The notes: generated from the sequence alone by a model not told the origin. 64,000 nt of DNA from Nannocystis bainbridge (GCF_028368995.1 NZ_JAQNDL010000001.1:1184001-1248000); one strand, 5' to 3'. Counted from the stretch's first letter, positions 222-28,923 are shown. A program made the numbers and translations.

Positions 222-578
222 GGGATTGCCCCGAAAACGTGGACACGTTGCTTATGCCGCTTGAGTCTGCGCCTGCTCTGCGTAGAAGCTCTCCTCGTAG
301 GCGATCGGGGTCGAGTAGCCGATCGACGAGTGGCGACGCTGGCGACTGTAGAACACTTCGATCCACTCCGAGATGACCGTCCTCGCGCTCTCACGGGTGA
401 GGAAGATCGTGCGGTGGACGAGCTCGGTCTTCAGCGTGCTGTTGAAGCTCTCGGCGACCGCGTTGTCCCAGCAGTTGCCCTTGCGGCTCATGCTGCTGGT
501 CATGCCTGCCTGGCGTAGGGCCTCGCGGTAATCGTCTGCTGCGTACTGGGAGCCGCGGTCGGAGTGGAAGACCAGGCC
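221..578 (-). mobile_element. IS3-family remnant (C-terminal part of OrfB transposase plus one terminal IR)
   Basis: GLVFHSDRGSQY...SMSRKGNCWDNAVAESFNSTLKTE...RRHSSIGY (252-578); end sequence TGGGATTGCCCCGAAAACGTGGACAC at 221-246; 5' part missing. Confidence 0.85.
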
Positions 579-887
579 CTCCAGGCGCATGCTGCTTTGC
601 AGGTTGCGGCGGCGGAGGCCGTCGGCTTCGCAGTTGGCGAGGACCGCGAGGGCAAGATCATCATCATGGGCGCCCTTCAACAGCCGAAGACCGACGCGAA
701 CGGCTGGGTCTTCGCGATCCCGGGTCCGATGGGCGCGCCTGTATGGGAGGTCGTTCGCAACGGGCCAGGCCAGGGGCCGGACGAGGCCGCGGGCCTCGCG
801 GTCGACGCGTGGGGCTACAGCGACATCGTCGGGAGCGAGTTTGACGCGTTGCAGCCGCGGGCGTTCGCGCTGCGCCTTTATCCGTAG
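579..887 (+). pseudogene. C-terminal fragment of a beta-propeller-like repeat protein
   Basis: Natural-looking GPDEAAGLAVDAWGYSDIVGSEF...LRLYP*; abuts the IS3 break with no convincing start. Confidence 0.4.
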
Positions 888-1074
888 CGCGTCGATGACG
901 AACGAGATCGGTGTGCGCGAGATCGAGGTCAGGAATCACGGGCGCACCGCTGGCGCGTCCTCCTGGTGACGGAGAAGGGGCCTGTCCTAACGGTCACAGT
1001 CGCGCCGCGCGAGTGCACCAGCGCGATCGTCGGCGTCGAGCGCGACCCAGCTACATGAGAAGATAGCCGCCGAG

Positions 1075-4000
1075 ATGAAGATACTGGCTGTGGACAACCA
1101 CAAGGGCGGCGGCGCCCGGGAACAGGGACGCTCCATGAAGCACGCACCGACCGACTGCAACCCGGCCTGGGAACACGCAGAGCGGCAAGCTCGCGACTGG
1201 GCCGCCCGCGTCGGCCTCGTCACCACCGACCGCGACCGCCGCCGGCTGGCGAAGATGGGTCAGGGACGCATGGCCGGCTGGCTCGCGCCGCACGCGGATC
1301 CAGGCGAGCTCGCCCTGCTCGCGCAGTGGGGTGCTTTCATCGCCCTCGTCGACGACACCTACGACCGCGACTCGCAAGCCGGGCCCGCGCAGGTCGACGA
1401 CTTGATGGATCGGCTCGTCGCCATCGTGACCCACTCCTCGGTCGACCACGACACCTCGATCCCGGCGGTCCGGGCCCTCACGGATCTATGGCCGCGCTCG
1501 GTGGCAGGGACCGCTCGCGGGTGGGCCCCGAGGTTCGCCGAACACTACCGGCGGTTCGCCGACGCGACCCGCGAGGAGGCGCGCCTGCGGGCCGGCGGTG
1601 TCCGCCTCGACCTGAAGCGGTACCTCGAGCTGCGCCGCCATACGATCACCGCGATGCCCGTGCTCGACCTGATCGAGCGCACCCTCCCGGCCGAGGCCGA
1701 CGTCCTCGACAAATTGCGGTGGATGGTCGTCGACGCGATCGCGTGGACCAACGACCTCGCCTCGGCCGAGCGCGAGCTGGCCGAGGGCACCGACAACCTC
1801 GTCAGCGTGGTCGCTCGCGAGCACCGCTGCGACCGCCACGAGGCCGCCGCGATCGTCCGCGCCATGCTCGACGAACGCATGGACGACTTCGACGACGCCG
1901 CCGCCGCTCTGACCGCCGCGGGCCCGTGGCAGGCCGGACTCGGCCCCCGCGTCGCGCTCCTCCGGGCCGCGCGCGACGGCTCACTCGCCTGGCAGGGCGA
2001 GACCCACCGCAACCGCACCGAGCCCAGCGACGCCCGCGGCCCTCGCTCCGTCCCGGGCGTCGACCCGCTGATCCGCCACCTGATGCCCGCCGTCGCCGCC
2101 GACGGGGCCGTCCGCGACCGCTGCGCCAGCCGCGTCCTCGAGACCGCGCTGCTGCTTTCCCTGCTCCGCGCCACCGATACCCACCCGGCCGAGCAAGAGC
2201 TCGCCGCCCGCTACCTGCGAGCCCGTCGCTCCGACGCCGACGCCCTCGACGCCCTCCTGATCGACGCCTGCCTCGACCCCAAGACCACCGCGCCGCGGGC
2301 CGTCGCCGCCGCCGCCGCGCTACCGCTGCCGCTGAGCCGCGGCACCGCCGGCCGCGGCCAGCTCAAGTTCGCAATGCTGCGGGTGGTGCTCCACTTGTTG
2401 TGCGGCGCGCCCGTGGGCGACCTCGAGATCCCCCCACTCTCCACGACCGACGAGATCACGACCTTCACCGAGGTTCACCGGCTCGTCCTCCGCATCGTCC
2501 AGGCGCCACACCTCCATGCGGTGTCCACCGGCGAGGTCGAGCGGCTGCTCGACCTGCTCGGCACCAGCCGCAATCGCGTGCTATGGGAGGCCAGCGCCAC
2601 GACCCACCTGCTCGGCCTCCACGCCGTGCGCAGGTTCCGTCCGACCCACCGCGTGATCGCCGACGGCCTTCTGCGCCTGACGCTCGCGCAGAACCCCGAC
2701 GGCGGCCTGCCCTTCCTCGACAGCCAGGACCTGTGGCTCGCGGCCGTCGCCGGGCTCGCCTTCCTCCACCACGCCCGCCTGCGCCCGCTCACCCGCCGCA
2801 TGGCGGCGTTCGTCGCCGCCTGGCAGGCGCGTGACGGCGGCTGGCCGTTCGCCTCCGGCATGATGCAGACCGACGTCGATACGGCGACCCGCTGCATGGA
2901 GTTCCTGCGGGCCGCCGATGTTCATCGCTACCGCGTCCAGCTCGACCGCGGCGCCGCCTACCTCGCGCGCATGGCCGGGCCGACCGGCGGGTTCCCGACG
3001 TGGGTCCGCGGCGAAGCCCCCGACCTCGACATGACCGCGGGTGCGATCCTCGCCCTCGCGCCCGATGGTCAGCGCCACCGCGACTTGCTCGTCGCCGCCA
3101 CCGACTTCGTCCTCGCCGCGCAGTTGCCCGACGGCACGTTCGAGCGCAGTTGGACGCTCAGCGAGGCCAGCGCGATCCTCCGCGTCGTCGACGCCCTCGA
3201 CGCAGTGCGCAGCAGTTCGTCCCCCGTGGTGGTCGACCGGATCGCCGCCGCGATCCAGCGGGCGGTGGCCCGGCTCGCCGCCACCCAGAACCACGACGGA
3301 GGCTGGGGCCGAACACCCGATGCGGACAGCGACGTCCTCTCGACCGCCCAGGCCCTCCCCGTCGTCGTCCGCCACGGCGACCCGGGCCACGCCGCGCGCG
3401 CGCTCGCCTATCTGCTCGCGCGCCAGGATTCCGACGGCGGGTTCACCTCGATCCCCGACCAGGTCGGGCCGCGCCCGCTGCCGTTCGACTTCCCGGTTCT
3501 GGCCGACATCCACGTCCTGACGGCCCTCCAGCGGTCCGCCGAGCTCACCAACACCGCGGCCCTCGCCGGCCGCGCGCCGCGGATCGGAGACCCTGACTGG
3601 TCCGCGCTCGCCTCGCGGATCCGCGGCGTCGTCGTGCGCCCGCGCGACCCCACGTACGAGCAGGGGCGTCTGCTCGTCAACCAGCGCTACGACGACGTCC
3701 GCCCGCAGGCCCTCGTCTACCCGGCCTGCGTCGAGGACGTCGTTGCGGTCGTGCGGTTCGCCCACGACCGCAGCGTCCGCCTCGCGCTGCGCTCCGGCGG
3801 GCACAGCTACGCCGGCTACTCGACGGGACCCGGCCTCGTGCTCGACGTCGGCTCGCTCAACACGACGAGCGTCGGCGGCGGCCGGGCCCTGTTCGGCGCC
3901 GGGGTCAAGGGCATGCAGGCCCACCTCGCCCTCGCGGCCGCTGGCGCCGGGCTGCCGCTCGGACGCTGCCCGTCGATCGGCCTGGCCGGCGTGACCCTCG

Positions 4001-4992
4001 GCGGCGGCCTGAGCGCGTTCACCCGCGCGTGGGGCCTGGCCTGCGATCACCTGCGCAGCGTCGAGATCGTCACCGCGGACGGCCGGATCCGCCGCGTCGG
4101 CCCATGCTCCGAGCCGCCCGACGACGACCTGTTCTGGGCCCTGTGCGGTGGCGGCGGCGGCAACTTCGGCGTCGTCACCTCCCTCGAGTTCGCCACCGAG
4201 GTCACCCGCGACCGCCACTTCGCCAGCTTCATCCTCACCTGGCCCGCCACCGACACGGCCGCCGTGATCCGCGGCTGGACGCTCTGGAACGCCGACCAGG
4301 GCACGCCCCGCACCCTCAGGAGCGCGTTCGAGCAGCTCAGCGACGCCGGCGCTCCTTCGCTGCCCACCGTGACCGGCACCTTCATCGGCACCCCCGACGC
4401 CCTGCAGCCTGCGCTGGACCGCCTGATCGCCGCCGTCGGCCGCTCCGAGGTCCAACGCCTGATCACCCCGTGCAGCTACATCCAGGCCGCCACCGAGGCG
4501 GAGCGGTGGGGCGGCGGGACCTGGGGCGCCCGCGTCGCCTTCGCCGCCAAGTCGCACATCGTCCGCCGGCCGATGTCCCCCGCCGCCGCCCACGACATGG
4601 CCGAATCGCTCATGCAGCTCCACAGCCTCACCGGCGTCGGAGGCGCCAGCGGCCTGCTGATCGACGGGCTCGGCGGGGCCGTCGGCGATCGCTCCGCCGA
4701 CGCGACCGCCTTCCCGCACCGCACCGCCGTCGGCGTCGTCCAATACCACTCCTACTGGACCGCGCTCACCGACCGCACACACGTCGAGCGGCGCATCCAG
4801 TGGTTGCGCGCCATCCACGCCGTCATGCAGACCCACCTCGGCGTCGGCGGCTACACCAACGGCATGGACCCCGAGCTGCGCGACTGGCCCGCCGCCTACC
4901 ACGGCGACAACTACTCGCGGCTGCAGCGGGTCAAGGCCACCGTCGACCCCGCGCAGTTCTTCGACTTCCCGCAGGCCGTCACACCGCGGTGA
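1075..4992 (+). CDS. Tri-domain fusion: class I terpene synthase + class II terpene cyclase (QW repeats) + BBE-like FAD oxidoreductase (start may be ATG 1135)
   Basis: DDTYD (1351), NDLASAERE (1750); DVDT (2872) and QW-type motifs AQNPDGG, WQARDGGW, TQNHDGGWG, RQDSDGGF; RSGGHSY (3790), GRCPSIG, LCGGGGGNFGVVT, YHGDNYSRLQRVKATVDP. Confidence 0.9.
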   Translation: MKILAVDNHKGGGAREQGRSMKHAPTDCNPAWEHAERQARDWAARVGLVTTDRDRRRLAKMGQGRMAGWLAPHADPGELALLAQWGAFIALVDDTYDRDSQAGPAQVDDLMDRLVAIVTHSSVDHDTSIPAVRALTDLWPRSVAGTARGWAPRFAEHYRRFADATREEARLRAGGVRLDLKRYLELRRHTITAMPVLDLIERTLPAEADVLDKLRWMVVDAIAWTNDLASAERELAEGTDNLVSVVAREHRCDRHEAAAIVRAMLDERMDDFDDAAAALTAAGPWQAGLGPRVALLRAARDGSLAWQGETHRNRTEPSDARGPRSVPGVDPLIRHLMPAVAADGAVRDRCASRVLETALLLSLLRATDTHPAEQELAARYLRARRSDADALDALLIDACLDPKTTAPRAVAAAAALPLPLSRGTAGRGQLKFAMLRVVLHLLCGAPVGDLEIPPLSTTDEITTFTEVHRLVLRIVQAPHLHAVSTGEVERLLDLLGTSRNRVLWEASATTHLLGLHAVRRFRPTHRVIADGLLRLTLAQNPDGGLPFLDSQDLWLAAVAGLAFLHHARLRPLTRRMAAFVAAWQARDGGWPFASGMMQTDVDTATRCMEFLRAADVHRYRVQLDRGAAYLARMAGPTGGFPTWVRGEAPDLDMTAGAILALAPDGQRHRDLLVAATDFVLAAQLPDGTFERSWTLSEASAILRVVDALDAVRSSSSPVVVDRIAAAIQRAVARLAATQNHDGGWGRTPDADSDVLSTAQALPVVVRHGDPGHAARALAYLLARQDSDGGFTSIPDQVGPRPLPFDFPVLADIHVLTALQRSAELTNTAALAGRAPRIGDPDWSALASRIRGVVVRPRDPTYEQGRLLVNQRYDDVRPQALVYPACVEDVVAVVRFAHDRSVRLALRSGGHSYAGYSTGPGLVLDVGSLNTTSVGGGRALFGAGVKGMQAHLALAAAGAGLPLGRCPSIGLAGVTLGGGLSAFTRAWGLACDHLRSVEIVTADGRIRRVGPCSEPPDDDLFWALCGGGGGNFGVVTSLEFATEVTRDRHFASFILTWPATDTAAVIRGWTLWNADQGTPRTLRSAFEQLSDAGAPSLPTVTGTFIGTPDALQPALDRLIAAVGRSEVQRLITPCSYIQAATEAERWGGGTWGARVAFAAKSHIVRRPMSPAAAHDMAESLMQLHSLTGVGGASGLLIDGLGGAVGDRSADATAFPHRTAVGVVQYHSYWTALTDRTHVERRIQWLRAIHAVMQTHLGVGGYTNGMDPELRDWPAAYHGDNYSRLQRVKATVDPAQFFDFPQAVTPR

Positions 4993-5029
4993 CGGGAGCC
5001 GCAATGCCCGGGCGGTCTGGAGCGAGTGG

Positions 5030-7576
5030 CTATCGCCACAGCACGACCAGGCCGGCGAAAGTCGCCGCGTGCTGGCGCTGGGCGTTCGCTCCCGCGGAGC
5101 TGGCGTCGCCGAGCACGTGCGCGCTGGCCGGTCGGCGATCGTACCACTCCGGCACCAACCCGTCCGGCCGAATTCCCGCTTCGAACTTCTTAAGCGCGAT
5201 CGTAAGCCACGATCCGCAACTCTTCGAGTGGCCTAGCCCGGATTTCTGACCACGGTGACGACGGAGAGCGCGGCGGTCGCGGTCATGACCTCGCGGACGG
5301 GGCCTCACGCCCGACGCTGAGGTCGTCGAGGGCCGAGCTCGGCCCAAAGCACCGACCGGACTCGTCGAGGCGGCGAGGAGCGACCGTCGCGCGCGACAAA
5401 GCGCGCGCGACGGCCGGGCCGCGTGATCAGCCCTGTGCGAGCTGAGCGACCGCTTCGTCTCGTTGGCGGCGAAGGCGGCGCTTCTCTTGCGGTGATACTC
5501 GTAGACGTGAGCGGGCAGCTCGGGGTCCTCGACGAAGTCGACGAGCTCGGGGACGCACAGCGCGACGACCTTCTCGAGGGCGGCCTTGCGTTCGGATGCC
5601 GACCGGGCGGTGCGCGCGTGCCCGGCCCACGCAAACACGTTGTCGGGTTGAACCTCGACCGCCAGCGAATAGCAGGCCGCCTCGAAGGCCGCGTCGGTCG
5701 GACCACGCTCGACGAGCGGGGGATCGCCGTAGTCGTTCCACGGCACTGCACGTACGGCTTCGGCGGACTCTTTGTCCCACATCGCGTCGAGCGCCGTTCG
5801 AAGCGAGGCGAGCGCCTCTGCGTCGCGGCCGAGCCGGTGCAGCGCGAGCACATGCCATTGGCAGCCGAGGTGATGGGTATGGTCCGAGCCCAGCGCCTCG
5901 AGCAGTCCTGCGCCGGCTTCGCGCGCGGCCTGCCAGTCGCCCTGGGCGATGGCGTACGCCACCGCGCGGTCCCAGAAGACCGCCTTGCTAGTCTCGGCCC
6001 AGCGGTCTGTCAGCGTGCTCGGAATTTCACCGATGGACCTCGCCAGGGCGATGAGGTCTTTCACCTTCGCCGCGCCTTCGAGCGTATCGACACGATCCGA
6101 TTCGAGCACCGCACGCGCCTTTCGTATGATGGTCTGGGCGCGGTGCTCGTTGAAACGAATGAGCTTCTCGTCGCTGCACAGCGCGATCAGGTGGTTGAGC
6201 GCGGACGCGCGCTCTTCGGGGGTCGGCGCCTCCGACCCGAGCTGCCACCAAAGCTCCAAGTTGTTGGGAAAGCTCTCGACGGCGTGCTTCAAGCAGCGAT
6301 GGCGAAACGCCGGCGAGACGTCGGTGGGGATCTTATTCGCGGGATAGTTCTTCATCTCGTTCCCCGAGAGCGCCGTGACCACCATCGCAAACGCCTGCTC
6401 GTCGCGACCGAGCTTGTGCAGCGCCGTGGCGAGGCGTGTCCCCACGCGCGGGCGATCTCTCGAGGGGGTCAGGCGCTCGGCAGTGGCTCCGGCTTCCGCC
6501 GCCAACGACCAGTCGTTCAGATCCTCGGCTGCGGACATGACCTCGCACCAGAGATCGGCCTCTGCGGGATGCTTCCGCGCGAGCGGCAGCGCCAGCGCGA
6601 GCTTCTCGTTTGCCCGCTTCAGCTCGCCGATGGCCTTGAGCGCCTTCTTGAGCTCCTTGGCCGGCATCTTGGGCAGCCCGACGTTCTTGGCGTTGGCATA
6701 GAGCTCGTCGTACTTCTCCTGGAGCTCCTCGTCTTCCTCGCGCGTCTCCTGATCGAGCAGGCCCTTCTTGGCGAGCGCCGTGAGCAGCTCGAGAAAGACG
6801 TCGAACGAGGTGAACTCCCGCCCGGCCCCCGTCTCGTGGTCGTAGAACAAGATCTGACCGGGCGTGCCGCCGTCGAGCGAGCCCGTGGGGTCGAAGCAGT
6901 ACAGCTGCCCGTCGCCGTCGGCCATGAACGGCACCCAGCTCTCGGTCCAGGCCCCCGCTTTTTGCCTCCACTCTGGCTTCTCGGCGAGGATGCCATTCAT
7001 CATCGACCGCGTCTTCTCGATCTCGGCGATCGGCAGCAGCCGATAACAATCGAAGAGCTCGGCCTCGGTGCCGTCGTGGGCCGTGTAGATGGCCAGGAGC
7101 GTCGCGGGCACCTCGTGCCCACGCAGGACCTTCAGCAGGTCCTCGGACGCCGCCGGACGCAGCTGCGCGGCGACCTGCTTGTGCTTCTTCCGGAGCGCCT
7201 CGAGGAACGCATCGACCGGGGGCGAGCCGGACGCGCCCCGTGGCGCCTGCGCGGCTGCTTTGGCGGCCGGCGCCTTGCTCGCGCCAGCCTTCGGCGCGTG
7301 GCTCGCGGGTGCGCTCGTTGCCCCCGCGACGCTCGGCGCGGCTGGCTCGCTCGGCCCTGTCGTCGTGGTCTCGACGTACCCCTTCTTGGTCTTCTCGGCG
7401 ATGAGCTTGGATGCTTGCCGCTGCGCCTCGTCAGCGTCGCCAAACGTCTTGTCCTTCGCGCTGCCGGCCGTGCCGACGCGCCCAAAGCACACGGTCATGC
7501 AGTCGCCCTCGACCGTAACCTCCCAGAATTTTTTCGAGGTGCCCTCGACGAACTCGAACCGACGCGTTGCTGCCAT
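5030..7576 (-). CDS. WGR domain + SMI1/KNR4 domain + TPR-like helical protein; C-terminus probably truncated near 5450
   Basis: FEFVEGTSKKFWEV...FGRVG (WGR); LRPAASED...YTAHDG...WVPFMADGDGQLYCFD...ILFYDHE (SMI1/KNR4); last ~140 aa look like read-through. Confidence 0.8.
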   Translation of the reverse strand: MAATRRFEFVEGTSKKFWEVTVEGDCMTVCFGRVGTAGSAKDKTFGDADEAQRQASKLIAEKTKKGYVETTTTGPSEPAAPSVAGATSAPASHAPKAGASKAPAAKAAAQAPRGASGSPPVDAFLEALRKKHKQVAAQLRPAASEDLLKVLRGHEVPATLLAIYTAHDGTEAELFDCYRLLPIAEIEKTRSMMNGILAEKPEWRQKAGAWTESWVPFMADGDGQLYCFDPTGSLDGGTPGQILFYDHETGAGREFTSFDVFLELLTALAKKGLLDQETREEDEELQEKYDELYANAKNVGLPKMPAKELKKALKAIGELKRANEKLALALPLARKHPAEADLWCEVMSAAEDLNDWSLAAEAGATAERLTPSRDRPRVGTRLATALHKLGRDEQAFAMVVTALSGNEMKNYPANKIPTDVSPAFRHRCLKHAVESFPNNLELWWQLGSEAPTPEERASALNHLIALCSDEKLIRFNEHRAQTIIRKARAVLESDRVDTLEGAAKVKDLIALARSIGEIPSTLTDRWAETSKAVFWDRAVAYAIAQGDWQAAREAGAGLLEALGSDHTHHLGCQWHVLALHRLGRDAEALASLRTALDAMWDKESAEAVRAVPWNDYGDPPLVERGPTDAAFEAACYSLAVEVQPDNVFAWAGHARTARSASERKAALEKVVALCVPELVDFVEDPELPAHVYEYHRKRSAAFAANETKRSLSSHRADHAARPSRALCRARRSLLAASTSPVGALGRARPSTTSASGVRPRPRGHDRDRRALRRHRGQKSGLGHSKSCGSWLTIALKKFEAGIRPDGLVPEWYDRRPASAHVLGDASSAGANAQRQHAATFAGLVVLWR

Positions 7577-7694
7577 GGCCTTCCTCTACTCCAAGACGAC
7601 CCGCCCGAGAATCATTTTTGAGGTCGAGCGGACCGCCCGTGATTTGGATCCACGATTGCTTGCTACCCAGGGGTACGGCCGGAACACGACAAGG

Positions 7695-7862
7695 TGTATC
7701 CGCGCCGAGTTCGAATTTCAACCTGCCGGACGGCGGTTCGACGCCGGACGGGTCAGCTCCGACGGCGGTTTGCTGCTGCTGCGCGAGCTGACCAAGAGTT
7801 CGGGTGTGTTTCGAAGGTTCGCGTCCTGCTTCCGAGACTACCGCGACCCGAGCCGCATCGAG
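7695..7862 (+). mobile_element. IS1380-family transposase N-terminal fragment
   Basis: FDAGRVSSDGGLLLLREL...FASCFRDYRDPSRIE. Confidence 0.75.
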
Positions 7863-7922
7863 CGGCGCGCGAGGATCCGCGGCTCCGACATCGGCCGCTG
7901 CGAGCGTTCGAGCCGGAGCGCC

Positions 7923-7952
7923 ATGACCCTTCGGACAGCTCCGAAGGGTCAT
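7923..7952. terminator. Perfect 13-bp hairpin (terminator or REP-like)
   Basis: ATGACCCTTCGGA-cagc-TCCGAAGGGTCAT downstream of the minus-strand Sel1 gene. Confidence 0.5.
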
Positions 7953-8006
7953 CGACAATTCATGCGCAGGCTCCTAGCCGGCGAAGCGGTGGTGAGCGGC
8001 CTCGCA

Positions 8007-8687
8007 TCAATTCGCGGCGCCGCTGCGCACCGCCTCGACCGTCGCCTCAGCGCCCGCGAGTTTGCCGACCAGGACGATCGCGCCGCAGCGGCCGTCGAGC
8101 GTCGCCACCGTGCGCGCGAGCGCCTTCTCGACGCAGGCGTTGGCCGCCGGCGAGCCGCCGCTGGCCGCCACGTCGCGCGTCTTGCCGCCGGCGAAGGTCC
8201 AGGTCGCCGCGAACGCTTGACCGGCTGGCGCGCACTTGTCGAGCGCGCGCCGCTGCTTCGCCAGCGACCCGGCGATGACGAGCGCGCCAAGCATCGGCAT
8301 ACCACCCATCACACCGCACATCAGGTCGCGCAGCTCGAGCCCGTCGGCGGCGATCGACCCGACCGTGAGATTGGCCTTGGCGATGAACGCGGGGCTCCTT
8401 GGCGCGCGCGCGGCCTTGGCCTGGCAGCCCTGCGCATCACCGAGCGCGCACGCCTTGTCGATGAACGCGGTCGTCGCTGCGGGATCGACGGCGACGCCGA
8501 GCCCCTTGTCGTGGACCACCGCGGCGATCAGACAGCCGACCGAGTTGCCGCGCTCGCACGCGCCGGTCGCCACGGCCAGCGCGCGCGTGGGATCCTGCGC
8601 CGCACCGCCGCTGCCGTTGAGCATGATCGTCGCCGCGCCCATGCAGGCCTCGGGATCACCCTGCTCGCACCGGGAGTCGCAGCCTAA
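8007..8687 (-). pseudogene. Sel1-like repeat protein, apparently 5'-truncated
   Basis: CEQGDPEAC...QDPTRALA...ACERGNSVGC...GLGVAVD...KACALGDAQGC. Confidence 0.7.
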
Positions 8688-9780: not shown

Positions 9781-10419
9781 GGCGTCAGCCGGGCGGGACG
9801 CAGACCTTGTCGACGGAGGAGGAGTCGTTGTCCTCGATGCACTCGTTGAGGACGCCCTTGCCCATGCCGTCGTCGTCGGCGACGGCGTAGACGCTGACGG
9901 ACCTGAAGCGGCGCCGACGCCGAAAGATCGACCCTTCCCCGCGGTGGTGTTCTGGAAGGGCGTCGACGGCGGCAAGAGCAGGCAGGTGCTCCACATCGAC
10001 TGGAAGCCGCATTTTCTCCGCCGGGTAGGCACGCGCGCGAAGCCGGGCATGGAGTGGGCCGTTCGCCCAGAGCAGCGCAAGCGCATCAGGGGCACTGCGC
10101 CGTTATGTCTGGCTGGCGGCTTCGCGGCTACCACGACGCGAATGGGGTTGAACACGTCGAGATCAAGGTGCGCGCATTACCCAGTCCCGCACGTTTTTTC
10201 TCCAACTTGTGCCCGCCGGTGGCCTTCGCGCCAGCGGGACCGGGCCCCCCGTATCAAGCGTGTTCTTCGGTGAAGCCTCCGCCGTCGCCGGCCAGCGCCA
10301 AGGCTCACCGAATCCGGGGACGGGCCACTCGTCCCACCGGCGGACCACCTAGTCCTGCACGATGGGCCGCCTGCAGGCAGCGATCGGCCGGGAACCCGGA
10401 AAGGGCTGAAGCGCGGGGT

Positions 10420-10887
10420 TCAGTACCCGAGGAACTCGAGCTCCTCGTCGCTGAGCTTGTGCAGGGGCTGGCGGGACTTGACCTCGCCGGTCGTCAGGTC
10501 ATTGTAGAGCTCCATGTCGGGAATGTTGCGCAGGATGAGCTCCATCTTGCGGATCTGCCCGCGCTCCGAGTCGATCATCTCCCGCTCGCGGATGATGTTG
10601 GCGATGACTCCGGCGGGGACGACGACGTCGTGCTTGGAGTCGCCCTGGGCTTGGTATGAGACGAAGCCCGAGTCGTTGTTCTGGAACTGGATGACCAGGG
10701 TGGCGAGGCGCTCGGCGTCGATTTGGTATTCCTCGCGGATGCGCCGCATCCGGGCTTCGCGCTCCTCGATGTTGGAGGCGATTTCCTTGACCTTCTTCTG
10801 CATCGCTGCGCGGATTTCGGGGGTGGTCTTGATATTATAGCGGACGGAATCGAACATGTCCGCGGGTCTGTCGACGCGATGGCCCAT
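10420..10887 (-). CDS. Hypothetical coiled-coil protein (start 10887 or 10857)
   Basis: Normal composition and GC3 bias; ends LSDEELEFLGY. Confidence 0.75.
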   Translation of the reverse strand: MGHRVDRPADMFDSVRYNIKTTPEIRAAMQKKVKEIASNIEEREARMRRIREEYQIDAERLATLVIQFQNNDSGFVSYQAQGDSKHDVVVPAGVIANIIREREMIDSERGQIRKMELILRNIPDMELYNDLTTGEVKSRQPLHKLSDEELEFLGY

Positions 10888-11028
10888 GGTGTGCCTCCAG
10901 GAAAGCATACGAAGCTACCGCGGTTAAGAAGTTTCAGCCACGCATTTCTCCGCTTCTCCCGCGCCGGCGATCGCCTGACCGTGGCTCGCGCGTCGACATG
11001 CGGCAGTGAACGGCGCGACTCCGGCACG

Positions 11029-11319
11029 GCCGGTGAAATCGGTGGCATCACGCGGACCACCGTCAAGACCTGGCAGGACCTGGGCTTCCTGCCGGTGCCG
11101 CTCAAGCGGTCGCTCGGCATGGGCGGCGGCGTGTTCAACCGCTATCCGGCCTGGGCCGTGCCGCGAGCACGCTTCATCGCCGAGAAGCGCGCCGCCGGCT
11201 TCACCTACGACGAGCTCCGCGTGATGCTGGCGAAGGCGGACGCGGAGGCGAGCCGCAAGGCGAAGGCGCCGAAGCCCGAGGCCGCCAAGCCAGCGAAGAC
11301 CAAGGTGAGCAAGGCCGCA
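11029..11319 (+). pseudogene. MerR-like HTH fragment with Lys/Ala-rich tail
   Basis: GGITRTTVKTWQDLGFLP...RYPAWAVPRARFI...GFTYDELR; no clear start or stop. Confidence 0.55.
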
Positions 11320-11394
11320 CGCGTGGCTGGCCCAGGCGCTGCAGCTCACGGGTCGCGTCGACGACCAGGCCGAGCTCAAGAGCGACCTCCAGGA

Positions 11395-11532
11395 GAACAT
11401 GTCGACGGCCCGACGCGCGCGCGCGGTGGCCGAGCTGTGCGGCGAACATGTCCAGCGCCCGCGATCGATGGCCGAGCCGTGGGCCGGCGAACATGTCCGG
11501 CGGCCCGACGCCCGCGCGCGGTGGCCGGGCTG
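11395..11532. repeat. Three imperfect direct repeats starting GAACATGTC
   Basis: Copies begin at 11395, 11444, 11489; copies 1 and 3 nearly identical over ~43 bp. Confidence 0.6.
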
Positions 11533-11710
11533 CAGCGGCGCTCATCACATCGGAGTGGGAGCTGGCGGCGCTGGGGTGTTGGCCGGCGCGCGGGGTGGCG
11601 CGAAAGGAAAGGTCTTCGACACGCCGACGTGCAGCGGCTCCACGCTGCCGAGGCCGTGGCGCTCCTTCGCGGGTTCCCACGCGGTTGCCTTCAAGGTAGG
11701 TTGGCCCACG

Positions 11711-13060
11711 ATGAGCGCGCTGCCCGATCTGGCTGTGACCGGAGAACAATACCGCGAGGTACCATTGCACGGCGATCCCCTGGTGGCCGCCGCCGGGCTG
11801 ATGGCCGGGACATCCACGTGCAACCGGTTATTGTACGAGCAGGACGGCCAGTTTTGCATCGGCCTCGGCACCAGGGCCGAGCTGCTCGTCGACTCTGGCA
11901 CCGTGCGAGTGCGGCACGGTGCGCGCGCCGAGACCATGGCATGGCAGGACAATCCGCTGCCTTGGATGACCACGCTGCTCGAACAACTGGACATCCCGCG
12001 CTGGTCTGCGTTCGGCTGGGCCAGCTTCGAACTCGCCTACGCCATGGCGGGTCTGCCGGTGGCCGACGATACGCTGTTGCTCCGCCTCGTGGTGCCGGAT
12101 GTCGAGGTTCGGGTGCGACCCGGCTCGGCCGCCGTGCGCGCGGCGACTACCGAGCAATTGGAAGCGGTGGAGGCGCTGCTACGGCGACCCGTGGCCGACC
12201 GCACGCGGGAGCCGGCGCCCATCGCAGTGGATGCACCGGATCCGCAATACACCGCTGCAGTGGCCGACTGCGTGGCGGCGATCCAGGCAGAGCAGCTGGA
12301 GAAGGTGATCCTGTCCAGGGAGGTCACCGTGTCCAGTCCGGTCGACCTGCTCGGCAGTTATGTGCACGGTCGCAGGCACAATACGCCAGTGCGGTCATTC
12401 GTGATCGACACCCCGGAGCTGACCGCGATGGGCTTCAGTCCGGAGATGCTGGTGGAGGTCGGATCCGACGGCGTGGTGCGCACGCAGCCGCTGGCCGGCA
12501 CCCGGGCGTACACTGGCGATCCGATCAAGGACGATCGGCTGCGGCACGAGCTGACCACCGACGCGAAGGAGATCTACGAGCACGCCATCTCGGTGCGGCT
12601 CGCCTGCCAGGAGCTGGATCGCATCTGCTTTGCAGGCAGTGTCGCGGTGCGCGATTTCATGACGATCAAACAACGCGGCCGGGTGCAGCACCTCGGGTCC
12701 GAGGTCAGCGGAACGCTGCCGCCGGTCGGCCCTCACGACACCGCCATCGCCCGGTCCTGGCGCGCGTTCGGGGCGCTCTTCCCGTCGGTGACAGCTTCTG
12801 GCATCCCGAAGGCCGCCGCGTACCGAATGATCCGTGCGCACGAGCCTGCGCCACGCGGGCTGTATGCGGGCGCAGTGTTCACCACCGATCATTCGGGTGC
12901 GATCGACGCGGCGCTCGCGCTTCGCACCGCCTTCCGCTCCGGCGGCCGCACCTGGCTGCGTGCGGGCGCGGGAATTGTCGGACAGTCCCGCCCCGAGCGC
13001 GAGTTCACCGAGACCTGCGAGAAGCTCAGCAGTGTCGCGGCCTATCTCGTCCGGCCCTGA
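11711..13060 (+). CDS. Salicylate synthase (MbtI/Irp9-type MST enzyme)
   Basis: EKVILSR, GFSPE, TQPLAGTR, KEIYEHAISVRLA, VQHLGS, LFPSVTASGIPK, RGLYAGAV, LRAGAGIVGQSRPEREFTETCEKL. Confidence 0.88.
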   Translation: MSALPDLAVTGEQYREVPLHGDPLVAAAGLMAGTSTCNRLLYEQDGQFCIGLGTRAELLVDSGTVRVRHGARAETMAWQDNPLPWMTTLLEQLDIPRWSAFGWASFELAYAMAGLPVADDTLLLRLVVPDVEVRVRPGSAAVRAATTEQLEAVEALLRRPVADRTREPAPIAVDAPDPQYTAAVADCVAAIQAEQLEKVILSREVTVSSPVDLLGSYVHGRRHNTPVRSFVIDTPELTAMGFSPEMLVEVGSDGVVRTQPLAGTRAYTGDPIKDDRLRHELTTDAKEIYEHAISVRLACQELDRICFAGSVAVRDFMTIKQRGRVQHLGSEVSGTLPPVGPHDTAIARSWRAFGALFPSVTASGIPKAAAYRMIRAHEPAPRGLYAGAVFTTDHSGAIDAALALRTAFRSGGRTWLRAGAGIVGQSRPEREFTETCEKLSSVAAYLVRP

Positions 13061-13352
13061 CGTCGCCGATGAACAAGCCGGGCACATGCGCGATACGCGT
13101 GATGCTCGGCGGGTCGCCTGGACGATGCGCCGTCCTGGCCGGACCTGCGGCCGCGATCCGCTGGCGGTCCAACGACTTGGCCTGGGCCAAGCTTTTTGGA
13201 GACCTCCCCAGGATCCGCTTCGACGCCGTTTGAGCCCTGCCGCCAAGGTCGTGCGCGGGCGTCAAGGGTACGCCCACTGCGCTCCTCACGGATGGCTCTG
13301 CAGGGCCGATCCGGAGCACCCTGCCGAGCGCCGAATAGATCCGCGATCTGAT

Positions 13353-13404
13353 GGTGGCCTACTTCTGGCGAGCAGAGGTGGCCTACTTCTGGCCAGCGGC
13401 GAAG
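13353..13404. mobile_element. Isolated IS21-like end with tandem transposase-binding repeats
   Basis: 17-bp direct repeat GGTGGCCTACTTCTGGC at 13353 and 13377. Confidence 0.5.
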
Positions 13405-13525
13405 CGAGCTCCGCGACTCGTGCTTCAAGCTCGGCAATTCGGCGTTCCTTGGCCTCCAGTTCGCTCACAGAGGCAGGAGAGCATTTTCGCGCGCCCTGCA
13501 AGATTCTCGGCCCGTGAACGGTTAC
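13405..13525 (-). mobile_element. IS66-family (ISBst12-like) left-end remnant
   Basis: Minus strand starts GTAACCGTTCAC, followed by coiled-coil ELEAKERRIAELEARVAEL. Confidence 0.55.
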
Positions 13526-13567
13526 AGCCGTTGCCACCCTGTGCATCACCATGGTAAGGGCTGTGGC

Positions 13568-14131
13568 ATGAATGCAATGGACGATTTCCTCGAGCGCAAG
13601 CTGGCGAGACGCTTTCGTGCGCACGATCGCGATGGTAATGGATATCTACAACGACAGGACTTCGAGCTGTCCGCAGTGCACATGGCCGAGGAATTCGGCC
13701 ACGGGCCGGAGTCTCCTGCCCGAAAGAGGCTCGTCGAGATCAGCCTGGGCTTGTGGGATCACCTGCGGAAGGTCGCCGACTTCGACGCCGACGAGCGCAT
13801 CAGCCTGGACGAGTACAAGGCCGCATTCGCGGCAGGCATGCTCGAGACCCCCGAGACGTTCGATCAGAGCTATGTCCCTTACATCAACGCAGTGATGGAC
13901 ATCGCCGATCAGGATCACGACGGGAGGCTCACCGTCTCCGACGAAATCCGCTGGATGGGAACGCTGATGAACATGCCTGAGCAGGTCACTCGCGCCGCGT
14001 TCCAGCGCATCGACAAGGACGGCGACGGCTTCATCACCACCAGGGATCTGCTGGAGACCATTCGCGCCTACTACTTCGACGACTCGCCCGACGCGCCCGG
14101 TCACTGGTTGCTCGGCTCGCTCTATCCGTGA
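13568..14131 (+). CDS. Four-EF-hand calcium-binding protein (calerythrin-like)
   Basis: DRDGNGYLQRQDF, DFDADERISLDEY, DQDHDGRLTVSDE, DKDGDGFITTRDL. Confidence 0.88.
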   Translation: MNAMDDFLERKLARRFRAHDRDGNGYLQRQDFELSAVHMAEEFGHGPESPARKRLVEISLGLWDHLRKVADFDADERISLDEYKAAFAAGMLETPETFDQSYVPYINAVMDIADQDHDGRLTVSDEIRWMGTLMNMPEQVTRAAFQRIDKDGDGFITTRDLLETIRAYYFDDSPDAPGHWLLGSLYP

Positions 14132-14976
14132 TCGCGTCCGCTCGCGCGGTGCTCCGGTTTACGGCCCCAGACCTGAAAGTAGAGGTGCGAGACCACCAGC
14201 GTGTCGGGGTCATCGCAATGGCGTTTGAGGTCTCGCAAAAGCCCGCCGAGCTCGGCTTCTCCGACAAATCCGCCGCTGACCAGTGCAGCGCGGACATTTT
14301 GGACGAAGTCGAGAAAGATGTGTCGGCGGTTATGGCCGTGCGGGTAGATGTGGATCACCGGATTCACCCGGAGCTCCACGAGCCCGGCGTCACGCAGCAT
14401 CCGGTGGATCTTTCTTCCCACGAACAGGTCGACGCCCTTGGCGCGGGAATACGCCTGAAAGATCTCGAACAGGCGATCCCAGGCGGGTGAAGGCGGGTCG
14501 CACAGGTGCGGGAGATAGTCCGCCTCATGGCTCGCTAGCACGCCTCCTGGGCGCAGCAGGGAGACCATCGCCTCGACGACCTGTTCCGGCCGTGGGACAT
14601 TCACGAGCACCAATCGACAGAACACCACGTCGAACGATTCTCTCGGCAGGCCGGGCGCCCTCGCGTCGCCATGTACGACCTCGACATTGGTTCGCTGCTG
14701 CTTTGCGACATGCGCGCGGGCCGAAGCGACGAAGCTCTCGTTCCTGTCGAGACCGACCACGGTCCCGGTCGGTCCCACGCGTTCGGAGAGCAGCTCGAGC
14801 GCCCCCTGCGGACCGCAGCCGAGCTCGATCGCCCGTGCGCCCGGGCGAATCTCCAACTGGTCGAGCAACCACCGGGCCTCCCCCGCGAGATCCTGAATCT
14901 GCTTGCGGAGACGCTCTTCCTCCCGCTGGCTGTCCCCCAATAGATACGTTTCGGAGTCCCTCGATTCGCTTTCCAT
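14122..14976 (-). CDS. Class I SAM-dependent methyltransferase
   Basis: IELGCGPQG, VVGLD, GDA, ESFDVVFCRLVL, LLRPGG. Confidence 0.9.
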   Translation of the reverse strand: MESESRDSETYLLGDSQREEERLRKQIQDLAGEARWLLDQLEIRPGARAIELGCGPQGALELLSERVGPTGTVVGLDRNESFVASARAHVAKQQRTNVEVVHGDARAPGLPRESFDVVFCRLVLVNVPRPEQVVEAMVSLLRPGGVLASHEADYLPHLCDPPSPAWDRLFEIFQAYSRAKGVDLFVGRKIHRMLRDAGLVELRVNPVIHIYPHGHNRRHIFLDFVQNVRAALVSGGFVGEAELGGLLRDLKRHCDDPDTLVVSHLYFQVWGRKPEHRASGRDHG

Positions 14977-15139
14977 AGACCTTCACGTCATCGACGACGG
15001 TAGGAGTGGTTGACTCGCCATGGCGGTGGATGCTCGCACAGCCGCGGCGCGAACTCAACCCCTCGTTCTCCGCCCGGATTCGCGGGGCCGATGAGGACTT
15101 CTGGACTCCGAATACTGCGGTGCCGCAGCTCGCGGCACC

Positions 15140-15255
15140 CCTCGGGCAGGTGGGCCTCGTGCGTCCGACGCTTGCCCGGCGTCGTGCGCTCGTGCGGCAG
15201 ATGGTGATGTCAATCCCAAACACGCGGGCGAGAAGCTTGGCTCGACCGATGCGAC
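15140..15255 (-). mobile_element. IS91-like transposase C-terminal relic
   Basis: RIGRAKLLARVFGIDITIC, then ARGPP in a shifted frame. Confidence 0.5.
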
Positions 15256-15259
15256 GCGG

Positions 15260-15779
15260 CCGGGACGAAGTCTCCGGCACGTCGTCCGACTTCGCGCAAG
15301 GCACGGTCGAGCGACGCAGCATCGGCCAGCGGGCTGTACATATAAATCTCTTCATCCGGGCCTGCCGGTGCGAAGGCAGCCTCTACCAAGACCGAGGTGT
15401 CGGCGCGAAAGAGCAGGAATTTTCCCCGCCGCGCGAGGCGATTTGTGAACAACGCGGCCCCGGCGACCTGAGCCGTCGCGGGCAGCCCCCGCGCCATTGC
15501 CGCGAGCTCTTCGTCGACGGCTTTCGGAAATTTCTCGCGGTCCCGATGGAGCTGGTCAGCGATCTTCGACACGTTCTCCCGGTCGCTCGACGCGAGCCAA
15601 CTGATGATCGTATCCCAGCTCTCGGCCTCCTCGCCCGCGGGCGCCGTCTCGTTCGCATAGTAGACGAGGACCTGGGGCCGCAACGACTCCTCGTTGCCGC
15701 AGGACGCGAGGGCGTAGGCGAACATCGCCGCGGCCACCAGCACCGCTACGAGCGGCACGACGAGTCCGCATCCTCCCAT
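15260..15779 (-). pseudogene. Truncated putative lipoprotein
   Basis: Hydrophobic signal ending LASC; frame runs into the IS91-like relic. Confidence 0.4.
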
Positions 15780-22097: not shown

Positions 22098-22127
22098 TCA
22101 CAGTTGATTCATTCTAATCACCTGTGA
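22098..22127. promoter_or_regulatory. Candidate tyrosine-recombinase core (att) site
   Basis: TCACAGTTGATT-CATTCT-AATCACCTGTGA: 12-bp arms (11/12 complementary), 6-bp spacer, AT-rich, overlapping the integrase stop. Confidence 0.65.
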
Positions 22128-23380
22128 TCCCTTCGCTTTTTGGGCTTTCCCTTGCCTGCGTGAGGGCGCGTCCGAGGAGCCCGTGACGGATCCGTGACAA
22201 CTGGCTGCGCCGATGCCCGCGCGTTCTCGAGGGCCGTCACCGCGCGCCCCTGTGCGTCGCCGGTGTCGTGGAGGTAGGCGGCGACCGTGGTAGCGAGGTG
22301 CTGATGGCCGAGCAGCTTCTGGACCGATACGAGGTCGGCTCCGCCAGCCAACGCTGAGGTCGCCGCCGAGTGGCGCAGCACATGAGCGCCCTTGGTCTCG
22401 AGCCCGACCGTGCCCTGCACATGCCCGAGCCAACGACGGATCGTGGACCGACTGAGCCGGCCTCCGTCGCGCCCCTCGAACAGCGGTGCCACCTTCCCCC
22501 TCCCTGCGACCAACGACGCAAGGGCAGCGGCGAGTCGCTCGGTCATGGACAACGTGCGCGGCTCGCCGCTCTTCGGGGGCGTGACCTCGCCGGTCGGACT
22601 GACCGATCGCTCGACCCGGACGGTGCGGTGCTCGAGATCCACATCGCGGACCTCGAGCCCGATGATCTCCCCGACCCGCAGGGCCGTCTCGCCGCCCACG
22701 AGGAATAACGCGAGATGTTCCGGCCCCTCTTCCGCAGCCGCCGCGACGAGCGCCTCGAACGTCGCGTCGTCGTACGCCTTCGGGATCGATCCCTGGCGCT
22801 CCCTGAGCTTCTCCAGCTCCTCTGGCGGCGTAGTCCGGAGACGCAGCACGTGGCAGCGCTTCAGCATCATGGCGAAGACATTCATCGTCTGATTGATGGT
22901 CGTGGCCGCATACCCCTGCTTCCGCATGGCAGCGCGAACCCGGCTCGCCTCGGCCTCCCCCGACTCGACCACGGGCTCATCGCCGACGACGGCGATAACG
23001 TGATCGAGCTTGAGCTTCTTCGCCTCGATCGTCGACGCCGCGTTGCCACGGCCGGCGCAATCCGCGAGGTAGATCTCCACGGCCTCACGGATGTTCTTGG
23101 CCCGCTTTTCCTCCTGCTGCGGCTGCTGAGCCGCCGCGTCGGGCTCGCCCGTCTCCTGAGCGGCCTTCGCCTTGCTGTCCTTGCTCTGCGGGGGCAGCCT
23201 TCCGGCTTCGATCTCCCGGCGGACCTGCTCGCCCCATCGGAGGGCCGCCGACTTGCTTGTGATCGAGCGCGGCGCCGAATAGCGGTACCGCTTGGCCTTG
23301 ATCGCCCCCAGCGGCATGGCCTTGATGTCGACCTGCCAGGCGGGCTCCTTGGTGTCTGTTCGCTGTCGCACCTTGATCAT
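22118..23380 (-). CDS. Tyrosine recombinase / phage integrase
   Basis: TALRVGEIIGL (R), PPKSG (K), HVLRHS (HxxR), LLGHQHLATTVAAYLH (H, Y). Confidence 0.95.
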   Translation of the reverse strand: MIKVRQRTDTKEPAWQVDIKAMPLGAIKAKRYRYSAPRSITSKSAALRWGEQVRREIEAGRLPPQSKDSKAKAAQETGEPDAAAQQPQQEEKRAKNIREAVEIYLADCAGRGNAASTIEAKKLKLDHVIAVVGDEPVVESGEAEASRVRAAMRKQGYAATTINQTMNVFAMMLKRCHVLRLRTTPPEELEKLRERQGSIPKAYDDATFEALVAAAAEEGPEHLALFLVGGETALRVGEIIGLEVRDVDLEHRTVRVERSVSPTGEVTPPKSGEPRTLSMTERLAAALASLVAGRGKVAPLFEGRDGGRLSRSTIRRWLGHVQGTVGLETKGAHVLRHSAATSALAGGADLVSVQKLLGHQHLATTVAAYLHDTGDAQGRAVTALENARASAQPVVTDPSRAPRTRPHAGKGKPKKRRDHR

Positions 23381-23519
23381 CTGCGCGTCACTTTCCGCGC
23401 AGCCCTGCGTCCGAGTTACCTCGACCGAGGGCCGCGATCAAGCATGGAGTCGAGAAATTTCCAGGATCGATAGACCGGAGGTTCGGCGCCAGTTGCTACA
23501 CTGCCCTCAGGCCGTGGAC

Positions 23520-23783
23520 CTAATAGCGTGGCTCTCCGAGTAGGGCGAGCCATTTCTCCAGGTCGCTTCGAAGCCACCGTACACCCAGTCCAGGCACCTT
23601 GATGGGAGGGGGAAGCTGGGCCCGAGCCCGCATGTTCCTCACCTGTGCCTCGGTCGAGCCGATGAACTCGGCGACTTCGGCTGCCCTCAGCAAGGCAGAG
23701 GAGGGCTTGATTGACTGTGGGGCCTTGTCGACGTTCAACGGAGCCGAGAGGCCCATCGCAGGATTTTGTCCCGTCTTCACCAC
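23520..23783 (-). CDS. AlpA/excisionase-like HTH protein
   Basis: LLRAAEVAEFIG...QLPPPIKV...VRWLRSDLEKWL, directly upstream of the integrase. Confidence 0.8.
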   Translation of the reverse strand: MVKTGQNPAMGLSAPLNVDKAPQSIKPSSALLRAAEVAEFIGSTEAQVRNMRARAQLPPPIKVPGLGVRWLRSDLEKWLALLGEPRY

Positions 23784-23826
23784 GTTCCACCTCCCCTTCG
23801 CCTACATCCCGTTGCTCGCTCCGGAT

Positions 23827-24519: not shown

Positions 24520-24530
24520 GATCGAGTTCC

Positions 24531-24740: not shown

Positions 24741-24745
24741 CGCTC

Positions 24746-25333: not shown

Positions 25334-25364
25334 GGACGGCTCCTTCGTGTGATTGTCGGGCGGC

Positions 25365-26987: not shown

Positions 26988-27069
26988 CTCTCTGCCCTTT
27001 CTCGCCGATGCTCCGCGCGACGGTGGCCGCAGTCCTCCGCGCGATTCCGGCTGTGTGGTTTATCCGAGG

Positions 27070-28018: not shown

Positions 28019-28021
28019 CCG

Positions 28022-28921: not shown

Positions 28922-28923
28922 GG

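Follow-up and report, generated by a model that had tools for sequence, protein, structure and literature searches.

The window analysed here, a stretch of 64,000 nucleotides from Nannocystis bainbridge (GCF_028368995.1 NZ_JAQNDL010000001.1:1184001-1248000), contains one intact gene that joins a class I terpene synthase (alpha domain), a class II terpene cyclase (gamma-beta didomain) and a BBE-like flavoenzyme in a single polypeptide. The open reading frame (ORF) begins with ATG, occupies positions 1075..4992 of the plus strand, and its translation of 1305 residues has no internal stop. The first-pass annotation of this DNA had described such an uninterrupted ORF with three enzyme domains, a description borne out by the translation and by Pfam matches above the curated cut-offs; the motifs it quoted, DDTYD, NDLASAERE, WQGETHRN, DVDT, RSGGH and GRCPSIG, are all found in the translation where it placed them. 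The gene and its parts are listed below, with row counts referring to the 34 aligned tri-domain members of the protein family.

1075..4992, plus strand: maximal ORF with its stop codon, encoding the alpha / gamma-beta / BBE-like fusion (P0001); ORF listing, translation, Pfam, NCBIfam and PDB matches
1135..4992, plus strand: coding sequence of the public annotation, starting at M21, 1285 residues; exact look-up
1156..2034, plus strand: class I terpene synthase (alpha) domain, residues ~28-320; PF19086, NCBIfam and PDB matches, modelled fold
1351..1365, plus strand: DDTYD, the DDxxD metal-binding motif, residues 93-97; D93, D94 and D97 in 34/34 rows
1750..1776, plus strand: NDLASAERE, the NSE triad, residues 226-234; N226 and D227 in 34/34, S230 in 33/34 and E234 in 32/34 rows
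1990..2013, plus strand: WQGETHRN, the family variant of WxxxxxRY, residues 306-313; W306, Q307, E309 and R312 in 34/34, N313 in 33/34 rows
2065..3534, plus strand: class II terpene cyclase, SsDMS-like gamma-beta didomain, residues 331-820; phmmer matches to PDB 7xq4/7xr7 (E 1e-61), Foldseek
2872..2883, plus strand: DVDT, the class II general-acid motif, residues 600-603; D600-V-D-T603 in 34/34 rows
3535..3609, plus strand: linker from cyclase to oxidoreductase, residues 821-845; low model confidence
3610..4989, plus strand: BBE-like oxidoreductase linked to flavin adenine dinucleotide (FAD), residues 846-1305; PF01565 and PF08031, Clz9/Tcz9 and EncM matches, fold
3790..3804, plus strand: RSGGH, residues 906-910, with H910 as predicted 8-alpha-N1-histidyl-FAD site; RSGGHS in 34/34 rows
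3961..3981, plus strand: GRCPSIG, residues 963-969, with C965 as predicted 6-S-cysteinyl-FAD site and G963/I968 as oxygen gatekeepers
4852..4860, plus strand: Y1260-T-N1262, the C-terminal Y/FxN motif of BBE-like enzymes; translation, alignments

Long ORFs also arise by chance in this window, whose GC content is 65-77%, an antisense ORF of 807 residues at 2581-5004 being one example; therefore the ORF by itself is weak proof, and it is the domain matches that decide. The codon-position GC of ORF 1075..4992 (GC3, at third positions, 0.93; GC2, at second positions, 0.54) resembles that of real genes of the window. An assembly artefact at the domain junctions is unlikely, because tblastn shows the in-frame architecture as one uninterrupted segment at 17 of 29 independent genome loci, thirteen of them tri-domain and four longer. 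As to the start codon, residues 1-25 have a predicted local distance difference test score (pLDDT) below 50 in an AlphaFold2 model of residues 1-830, and the ratio of non-synonymous to synonymous substitution rates (dN/dS) between the window gene and that of Nannocystis punicea is 0.74 across residues 1-27. Given that the first 25 residues model as disorder and the first 27 are nearly neutral, position 1135 (M21) is more likely to be the true start than 1075. The N. radixulma orthologue begins at the equivalent of M21 too.

The tri-domain architecture is no singleton; it defines a family of dozens. A family search gave 74 matches, counted as clusters at 90% identity, and sorting by domain architecture yielded 33 further clusters (1233-1354 residues) with all four Pfam families of the window protein and 21 clusters (753-863 residues) with the two cyclase domains only, the rest being five longer proteins (1510-2141 residues), three partial ones and twelve unrelated FAD-domain fusions. 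Clustered at 50%, the family reduces to a few representatives (query residues 21-830). Its named members are nearly all actinomycetes (Streptomyces, Streptantibioticus, Kitasatospora, Nonomuraea, Amycolatopsis, Saccharopolyspora, Saccharothrix, Actinosynnema and Allokutzneria), to which Nannocystis is added. Thirty-four of 34 aligned tri-domain rows keep D93, D94, D97, N226, D227, W306, Q307, E309, R312, R427 and R800, and likewise D600-V-D-T603, RSGGHS and G963-R-C965. The longer relatives P0004-P0007 carry two BBE-like domains in tandem within one frame (alpha / gamma-beta / BBE / BBE). Pfam maps, made for three of these four largest forms (P0004, P0005 and P0007), show two FAD_binding_4 and two BBE stretches in each; at the C-terminus of P0005 and P0007 a short-chain dehydrogenase (SDR) follows, giving up to five catalytic modules on a chain of about 2140 residues. 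By tblastn, the second in-frame BBE copy is found in loci L004, L005, L008 and L025 (about 10001-15500 in each).

In the alpha domain, residues 84-271 match Pfam Terpene_syn_C_2 (PF19086) over the complete model (1-199 of 199; E 3e-35, 122.1 bits, cut-off 23.7), and the top NCBIfam model for this part is isoafricanol synthase, at 132 bits and thus below its equivalog cut-off of 500 bits. Among PDB sequences residues 29-297 match pentalenene synthase (E 8e-23), and Foldseek superposes the alpha model on the same enzyme with a template modelling (TM) score of 0.83-0.84; the nearest structures as a group, pentalenene, T-muurolol and avermitilol synthases, score 0.77-0.84. The model has the alpha-helical terpene synthase fold, with pLDDT mostly 80-94 over residues 30-310. 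A word-based search for stand-alone relatives of the alpha domain gave seven matches, all of them fragments of the tri-domain family itself.

The gamma-beta part is nearest to one known enzyme. Residues 332-820 match the PDB entries 7XQ4 and 7XR7 and the 8ZG* variants with E about 1e-61 (phmmer), and the top nine Foldseek hits of the gamma-beta model are entries of the same protein, with TM 0.87-0.88 and 33-36% identity. 7XR7 is SsDMS, the drimenyl diphosphate synthase of Streptomyces showdoensis (PMC12232559), and the PDB titles agree. Stand-alone gamma-beta relatives in Streptomyces reach only 40-45% identity. Within this part, residues 649-796 match Pfam SQHop_cyclase_C and SQHop_cyclase_N (39.6 and 28.5 bits, cut-offs 26.1 and 26.2). 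In SsDMS the general acid is D303, and R132, K133, E169 and R501 are ligands of the diphosphate and Mg (PMC12232559); by sequence alignment D602 of the DVDT motif pairs with D303, R427 and R800 pair with the diphosphate ligands R132 and R501, and Phe547 pairs with F248. The AlphaFold2 model of residues 1-830 has a mean pLDDT of 83.1 and a predicted TM score (pTM) of 0.83, while pTM is only 0.49 for the model of residues 331-1305 (gamma-beta and BBE-like parts), with pLDDT below 50 at residues ~824-838 of the linker. By their predicted confidence, the models suggest that alpha and gamma-beta form a rigid unit to which the flavoenzyme is flexibly tethered.

The C-terminal part is a BBE-like flavoenzyme by sequence and by fold: Pfam FAD_binding_4 (PF01565) matches residues 877-1008 at 85.9 bits (cut-off 26.4) and BBE (PF08031) residues 1260-1302 at 49.7 bits (cut-off 20.6), residues 846-1302 match Clz9/Tcz9 (E 1e-51) and EncM (E 1e-41) among PDB sequences, and the modelled BBE half superposes on EncM with TM 0.82-0.85. 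In the crystal structure of Clz9, His99 and Cys157 bind FAD bicovalently (bioRxiv 10.1101/2025.10.07.680811); H910 and C965, both invariant in the 34 aligned rows, pair with these two residues. Access of oxygen is set by gatekeepers, a Gly at Cys-2 letting O2 in, and Val at Cys+3 being typical of an oxidase and Leu of a dehydrogenase; bicovalent enzymes usually have a His at Cys+8 (PMC4898691). Gly963, at Cys-2, fits an oxidase. Both assignments, oxidase and bicovalent flavin attachment, are probable but not secure from these residue comparisons.

Judging from homology and motifs, it is somewhat more probable than otherwise that the polypeptide provides a self-contained, three-step route to an oxidised sesquiterpenoid, in the order class II cyclisation, class I cyclisation and flavin-dependent oxidation. 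In the first step gamma-beta would bind farnesyl diphosphate (FPP), and Asp602 of DVDT would protonate its terminal double bond, giving a bicyclic, drimenyl-type diphosphate as in SsDMS. The alpha domain, which by prediction packs rigidly on gamma-beta, would then take over this diphosphate through the Mg-binding DDTYD and NDLASAERE motifs and ionise it, releasing a drimane-derived olefin or alcohol that may be further cyclised or rearranged. Finally, the tethered BBE-like domain, its FAD held covalently by His910 and probably by Cys965, would take a hydride from the terpene product in an alcohol oxidation, a dehydrogenation or an oxidative cyclisation, and hand the electrons on to O2 or a different acceptor. 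Primary metabolism would supply the FPP, and no further gene would be needed. The first-pass annotation had proposed a one-gene pathway that cyclises and oxidises a terpenoid. That proposal fits the lack of conserved neighbours, but its oxidase part is not secure, and the chemistry can be narrowed to a C15 drimenyl type, because gamma-beta is nearest to SsDMS and alpha nearest to sesquiterpene synthases.

The neighbourhoods of the gene are consistent with such autonomy. ORF calling and all-against-all clustering of 29 loci and the window revealed no shared neighbour family; the central gene grouped 26 sources, and the sole other group comprised three loci. Among 132 flanking proteins, three on each side at 22 loci, Pfam detected no polyprenyl synthase, P450 or Nudix hydrolase and no recurring biosynthetic partner, and at the six loci of the 2-domain form there is no adjacent BBE gene. 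Transposase-type genes adjoin five of the 22 loci. A polyprenyl synthase domain is also missing from the 39 window ORFs that were called by GC3 and scanned, in agreement with the earlier remark that no prenyl diphosphate synthase is adjacent; P450 and Nudix domains are likewise missing from these 39. Being without conserved neighbours, the tri-domain gene travels alone, which fits a primary metabolite, FPP, as substrate.

The same data bear on a different substrate. The protein could be a diterpene cyclase/synthase of the labdane type, acting on geranylgeranyl diphosphate (GGPP) like the bacterial DCSs and joined to an oxidoreductase. Known bacterial fusions of class I and class II domains are diterpene enzymes, other proteins of alpha-gamma-beta order are grouped with putative DCSs (PMC12164552), and one neighbour of the alpha fold, 9m25, is a diterpene synthase of type I (28% identity, TM 0.81), which speaks against a purely C15 interpretation. 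Yet the neighbours of the alpha domain are mostly sesquiterpene synthases, gamma-beta is far nearer to the C15 enzyme SsDMS than to the diterpene ent-CPP synthase 5bp8 (TM 0.63, 19% identity), and there is no GGPP synthase beside the gene at the 22 loci or in the window. We therefore regard a diterpene route as distinctly unlikely and keep to the C15 route from FPP.

Several other features weigh against the three-step route from FPP or leave parts of it less firm. Identities of 33-45% to homologues fix neither substrate nor product. In the class II site the position of SsDMS K133 is Gly428, and the Mg ligand E169 is placed opposite His468 where the alignment is poor, an Asp/Glu at 466 lying two residues off; therefore diphosphate and Mg binding is verified only in part. 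SsDMS Y505, which is mutated in 8ZG5, pairs with Phe804, because of which the cyclisation product of gamma-beta may differ from drimenyl diphosphate; we located no open-access paper on the role of F248 or Y505. In the flavoenzyme, Ile968 at Cys+3 is neither the Val of oxidases nor the Leu of dehydrogenases (Clz9 likewise has Ile, and the family has Ile in 29 rows and Val in five), and Val973 stands at Cys+8, where Clz9 has His165. The first-pass claim of a bicovalent-FAD oxidase is thus upheld at the His and Cys, which align with those of Clz9, and weakened at the gatekeeper and at the position of the usual His. Lastly, the class I RY pair is replaced by RN.

These partial matches in the class II site raise the question of the order of the two cyclisations. 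The alpha domain could cyclise FPP first and gamma-beta re-protonate the resulting neutral olefin, or the two could form independent products that the flavoenzyme then oxidises. The alpha domain has the full set of class I motifs and looks like ordinary FPP-cyclising sesquiterpene synthases, K133 and E169 of SsDMS are not clearly kept, and alpha precedes gamma-beta in the sequence, unlike in the characterised gamma-beta-alpha enzymes. Against this, the invariance of R427 and R800 points to a diphosphate as what the class II site binds, and the characterised class I/II fusions considered here all run class II first and class I second (PMC11469919). An order other than class II followed by class I is in our estimate unlikely, and the sequence from drimenyl-type diphosphate to class I product is retained as the preferred one.

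The C-terminal RY pair (WxxxxxRY) is an auxiliary feature of class I synthases, frequent and not defining. The earlier observation that this motif reads WQGETHRN in the window protein is correct, but it denotes no local defect, RN being present in 33 of 34 aligned tri-domain proteins. Among 60 family rows RN occurs with a BBE domain in 37 and without one in seven, whereas RY occurs without BBE in 14 and with it in two. RY is retained mostly in a sister clade that largely lacks the oxidase, and RY rows mostly carry NDxxD in place of NDxxS. Both traits track the phylogeny and therefore give no proof of independent co-evolution; WQGETHRN is, on the aligned rows, a clade feature of the tri-domain proteins.

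How the gene is distributed in Nannocystis bears on its possible transfer. The nearest proteins are those of N. punicea (94%) and N. radixulma (94%), of the phylum Myxococcota; the AcrB/HlyD/OEP tripartite efflux system encoded in the window marks the host as a diderm. The DNA common to the window and the N. punicea chromosome and the mobile-element debris on either side are as follows.

981..5124, no strand assigned: sole segment common to the N. punicea chromosome, 95.1% identical over 4145 columns; DNA alignment
252..680, minus strand: integrase-core (rve) fragment, upstream mobile-element debris; Pfam
7089..8687, plus strand: downstream ORF with a short DDE transposase fragment, 31.1 bits, below the Pfam cut-off of 34.7

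The common segment consists of the gene, ~91 nucleotides upstream of the first ATG and ~132 nucleotides past the stop; its borders are abrupt, its flanks are unrelated, and no terminal inverted or direct repeats stand out around it from the GC-rich background. Full-length copies are present in three Nannocystis genomes, that of the window, N. punicea and N. radixulma (P0201). Other copies are incomplete: a second copy in N. radixulma (P0202) has 863 residues and stops at about residue 871, Nannocystis sp. RBIL2 (L026 10001-11663) has only residues 752-1305 left, frameshifted, and N. pusilla has pieces of 372 and 131 residues (P0076 and P0176). A 420-residue protein from a Polyangiaceae metagenome-assembled genome (MAG), on a contig of 3989 nucleotides, is 89-90% identical, and Pendulispora rubella has a fragment of 177 residues at 62%. 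Since several Nannocystis copies are truncated or fragmented, the gene is dispensable, a further point that counts against a functional pathway.

Could the gene be a silent or decaying passenger of transfer, with no current function in this host? The decayed copies, the integrase and transposase fragments in the flanks and the mere 4.1 kb held in common with N. punicea would fit such a state, as would the failure of a sigma-70 consensus scan to find a promoter-like site, a scan that is uninformative in GC-rich DNA (0 sites found vs 0.0 expected). Of terminator-like sites there is one, on the wrong strand and inside the gene, vs 0.6 expected. The ORF is nevertheless intact, full-length copies are kept in three genomes, and comparison of the window gene with that of N. 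punicea gives a dN/dS of 0.31 for the whole (75 amino-acid differences in 1302 aligned codons) and 0.26, 0.235 and 0.356 for the alpha, gamma-beta and BBE domains, respectively, none of the 75 differences falling on a catalytic residue. Given the low ratio in each domain and the unchanged catalytic residues, all three domains are under purifying selection and the intact copies are maintained by selection. We give very little credence to the passenger explanation and keep to an enzyme that is probably at work.

The position of the Nannocystis proteins was the same in two trees, one of 60 rows rooted at the midpoint and one of 72 gamma-beta rows with 12 stand-alone gamma-beta cyclases as outgroup. 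The window protein groups with that of N. punicea and with one protein from a metagenome in a clade with support of 100, sister to a clade of 35 rows whose named members are all actinomycetes, as are those of the enclosing group. Transfer between phyla is the sensible reading of this patchy distribution, and the gene in Nannocystis is probably a horizontally acquired stand-alone segment of 4.1 kb. The breadth of distribution and the best tree favour the direction from actinomycete to myxobacterium, which is not statistically established: in an approximately unbiased (AU) test a clade of the 57 other fusions without Nannocystis, a group defined only after inspection of the tree, was not rejected (log-likelihood difference 11.06, p-AU 0.285), which leaves a nested origin less firm.

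A bolder version of the preferred route can be formulated, to which we attach tentative belief only and which is rather more doubtful than the route itself. The protein would be the first pair of sesquiterpene cyclases working from class II to class I with a tethered flavoenzyme, and would make a new oxidised, drimane-derived scaffold without helper genes, so that it could hop as a 4-kb unit between actinomycetes and myxobacteria; RN in place of RY would adapt the class I site to a bicyclic diphosphate that reaches it within the rigid alpha/gamma-beta unit.

Compared with known systems, the protein combines familiar parts in an unusual way. With SsDMS it shares the gamma-beta class II fold, the general-acid Asp of D-V-D-x and two diphosphate-binding arginines; SsDMS, however, is a stand-alone enzyme of 500 residues with DVDD, whereas the window protein has DVDT in a cyclase fused between an alpha domain and a flavoenzyme. 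The DCSs (CseDCS, ChjDCS, StrDCS and the syn-abietadiene synthase of S. albulus) also hold both cyclase active sites on one polypeptide, but they have gamma-beta-alpha order, use GGPP and lack an oxidoreductase, unlike the window protein, which is alpha-gamma-beta-BBE with C15 enzymes as nearest relatives. The five bacterial class I/II fusions, characterised or candidate, described by Chen et al. (PMC11469919) are all gamma-beta-alpha, in line with the first-pass statement that such fusions usually have class II first; in the window protein alpha comes first. The order alpha-gamma-beta was termed novel, from bioinformatics only (sequence and predicted structure), for A0A4U0NJT4 and A0A944KY65 (PMC12164552). 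Compared by description, these two proteins have the same unusual order as the window protein, but A0A4U0NJT4 has two alpha domains and the motifs DDHFD and NDIVSYNRE, and the description mentions a flavoenzyme for neither.

Cyclases fused to an activity that processes their product further have been put at "only a handful" (Osika et al., PMC13684600). One of them, the drimenol synthase AsDMS of Aquimarina spongiae, resembles the window protein as a cyclase with DxDT, fused to a downstream enzyme, in drimenyl diphosphate chemistry; its partner is a HAD phosphatase and its cyclase part a beta domain only, whereas the window protein has a class I synthase and a flavoenzyme, and Pfam gives no HAD match in P0001. 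An unfused parallel is the cav cluster of Streptomyces clavuligerus (CavC, a DMS; CavB, a Nudix enzyme; CavF, a class I cyclase; and three P450s), in which the class II DMS and the class I cyclase are encoded alongside oxidising enzymes for drimane sesquiterpenoids (PMC11035983). It differs in its separate genes, in oxidation by P450s and in dephosphorylation by Nudix, and the role of CavF is unassigned in the published description. Clz9/Tcz9 (PDB 9P1P and 9P1O), the best match of the C-terminal part, align at the His/Cys positions, the Ile gatekeeper and YxN; they are stand-alone enzymes of other pathways, with the difference at Clz9 His165 given above. No paper on a fusion of a terpene synthase with a BBE domain was found in the open-access literature and preprints (main texts), and the earlier statement that no characterised fusion adds an oxidase holds in that body of work.

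The family, which comes mainly from actinomycetes and is uncharacterised, carries generic names in public databases; it is a good target for genome mining and not a categorical surprise. If the proposed route is true, a chain that unites both cyclase classes with one flavoenzyme or two, and with SDR in some members, would be a compact and portable source of oxidised sesquiterpenoids and a natural test bed for how substrate passes from one terpene active site to the next. Since the gene has no conserved helpers, one expression construct ought to be enough to reveal its product. Scattered over non-syntenic positions and decayed in part, the Nannocystis copies illustrate both the spread and the loss of a pathway that consists of one gene.

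Gamma-beta units like that of SsDMS are found in many other fusions too, namely gamma-beta-alpha, alpha-alpha-gamma-beta, HAD-gamma-beta and gamma-beta-HAD (P0206-P0208, P0211, P0218, P0226, P0230, P0267, P0272, P0273 and P0322; those with HAD are P0218, P0226, P0230 and P0272). A flavoenzyme domain is absent from all 14 scanned proteins with these other fusion types, and the same scan showed a protein of 1617 residues with four class I domains in tandem. P0042 of Streptomyces fumigatiscleroticus (1510 residues) is related and tri-domain, retains RY and has GXWXG and DUF4334, two domains of unknown function, at its end; it is the earliest branch of the outgroup-rooted tree, on a long branch. 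P0196 (386 residues, alpha only, 55%) and P0077 (514 residues, gamma-beta only, 60%) each have a longest contig of 16458 nucleotides, and could represent the two cyclases in a naturally split state, or else a frameshift. In Streptomyces diacarni (L024 10001-11407) a stand-alone BBE-like gene, 73% identical to the C-terminal domain of the fusion, directly follows an IS4/5 transposase fragment and is probably what an insertion has left of a tri-domain gene. A copy at 60-67% on an 8.1-kb MAG contig labelled Candidatus Melainabacteria (L027 2-2092) is broken over three frames, lacks residues ~292-430 and lies at the contig end; possible readings are a pseudogene, an error of assembly or an actinomycete contig placed in the wrong bin.

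In the rest of the window, a gene at 5030-7576 of the minus strand, convergent with the terpene gene, encodes a protein of 848 residues with WGR and SUKH-1 (SMI1/KNR4) domains. Its last ~31 codons (5030-5124) lie within the segment common to N. punicea, so that the insertion may have reshaped the 3' end of this gene. A few kb downstream of the terpene gene are a chorismate-binding enzyme (11399-13060), an EF-hand protein (13514-14131) and an S-adenosylmethionine methyltransferase (14122-14976, minus strand), which nothing ties to the terpene gene. A mobile and defence island at 22118-36847 begins with a tyrosine integrase (22118-23380) and contains an SNF2/ResIII helicase ORF of 1919 residues (29365-35124), overlapping an Eco57I-type N6-methylase ORF (33906-36296), both with coding-like GC3, and an EcoEI_R_C protein (36293-36847). 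Finally, positions 48374-57813 hold a histidine kinase, a tripartite RND efflux operon of OEP, HlyD and AcrB type (50342-56007) and a response regulator.

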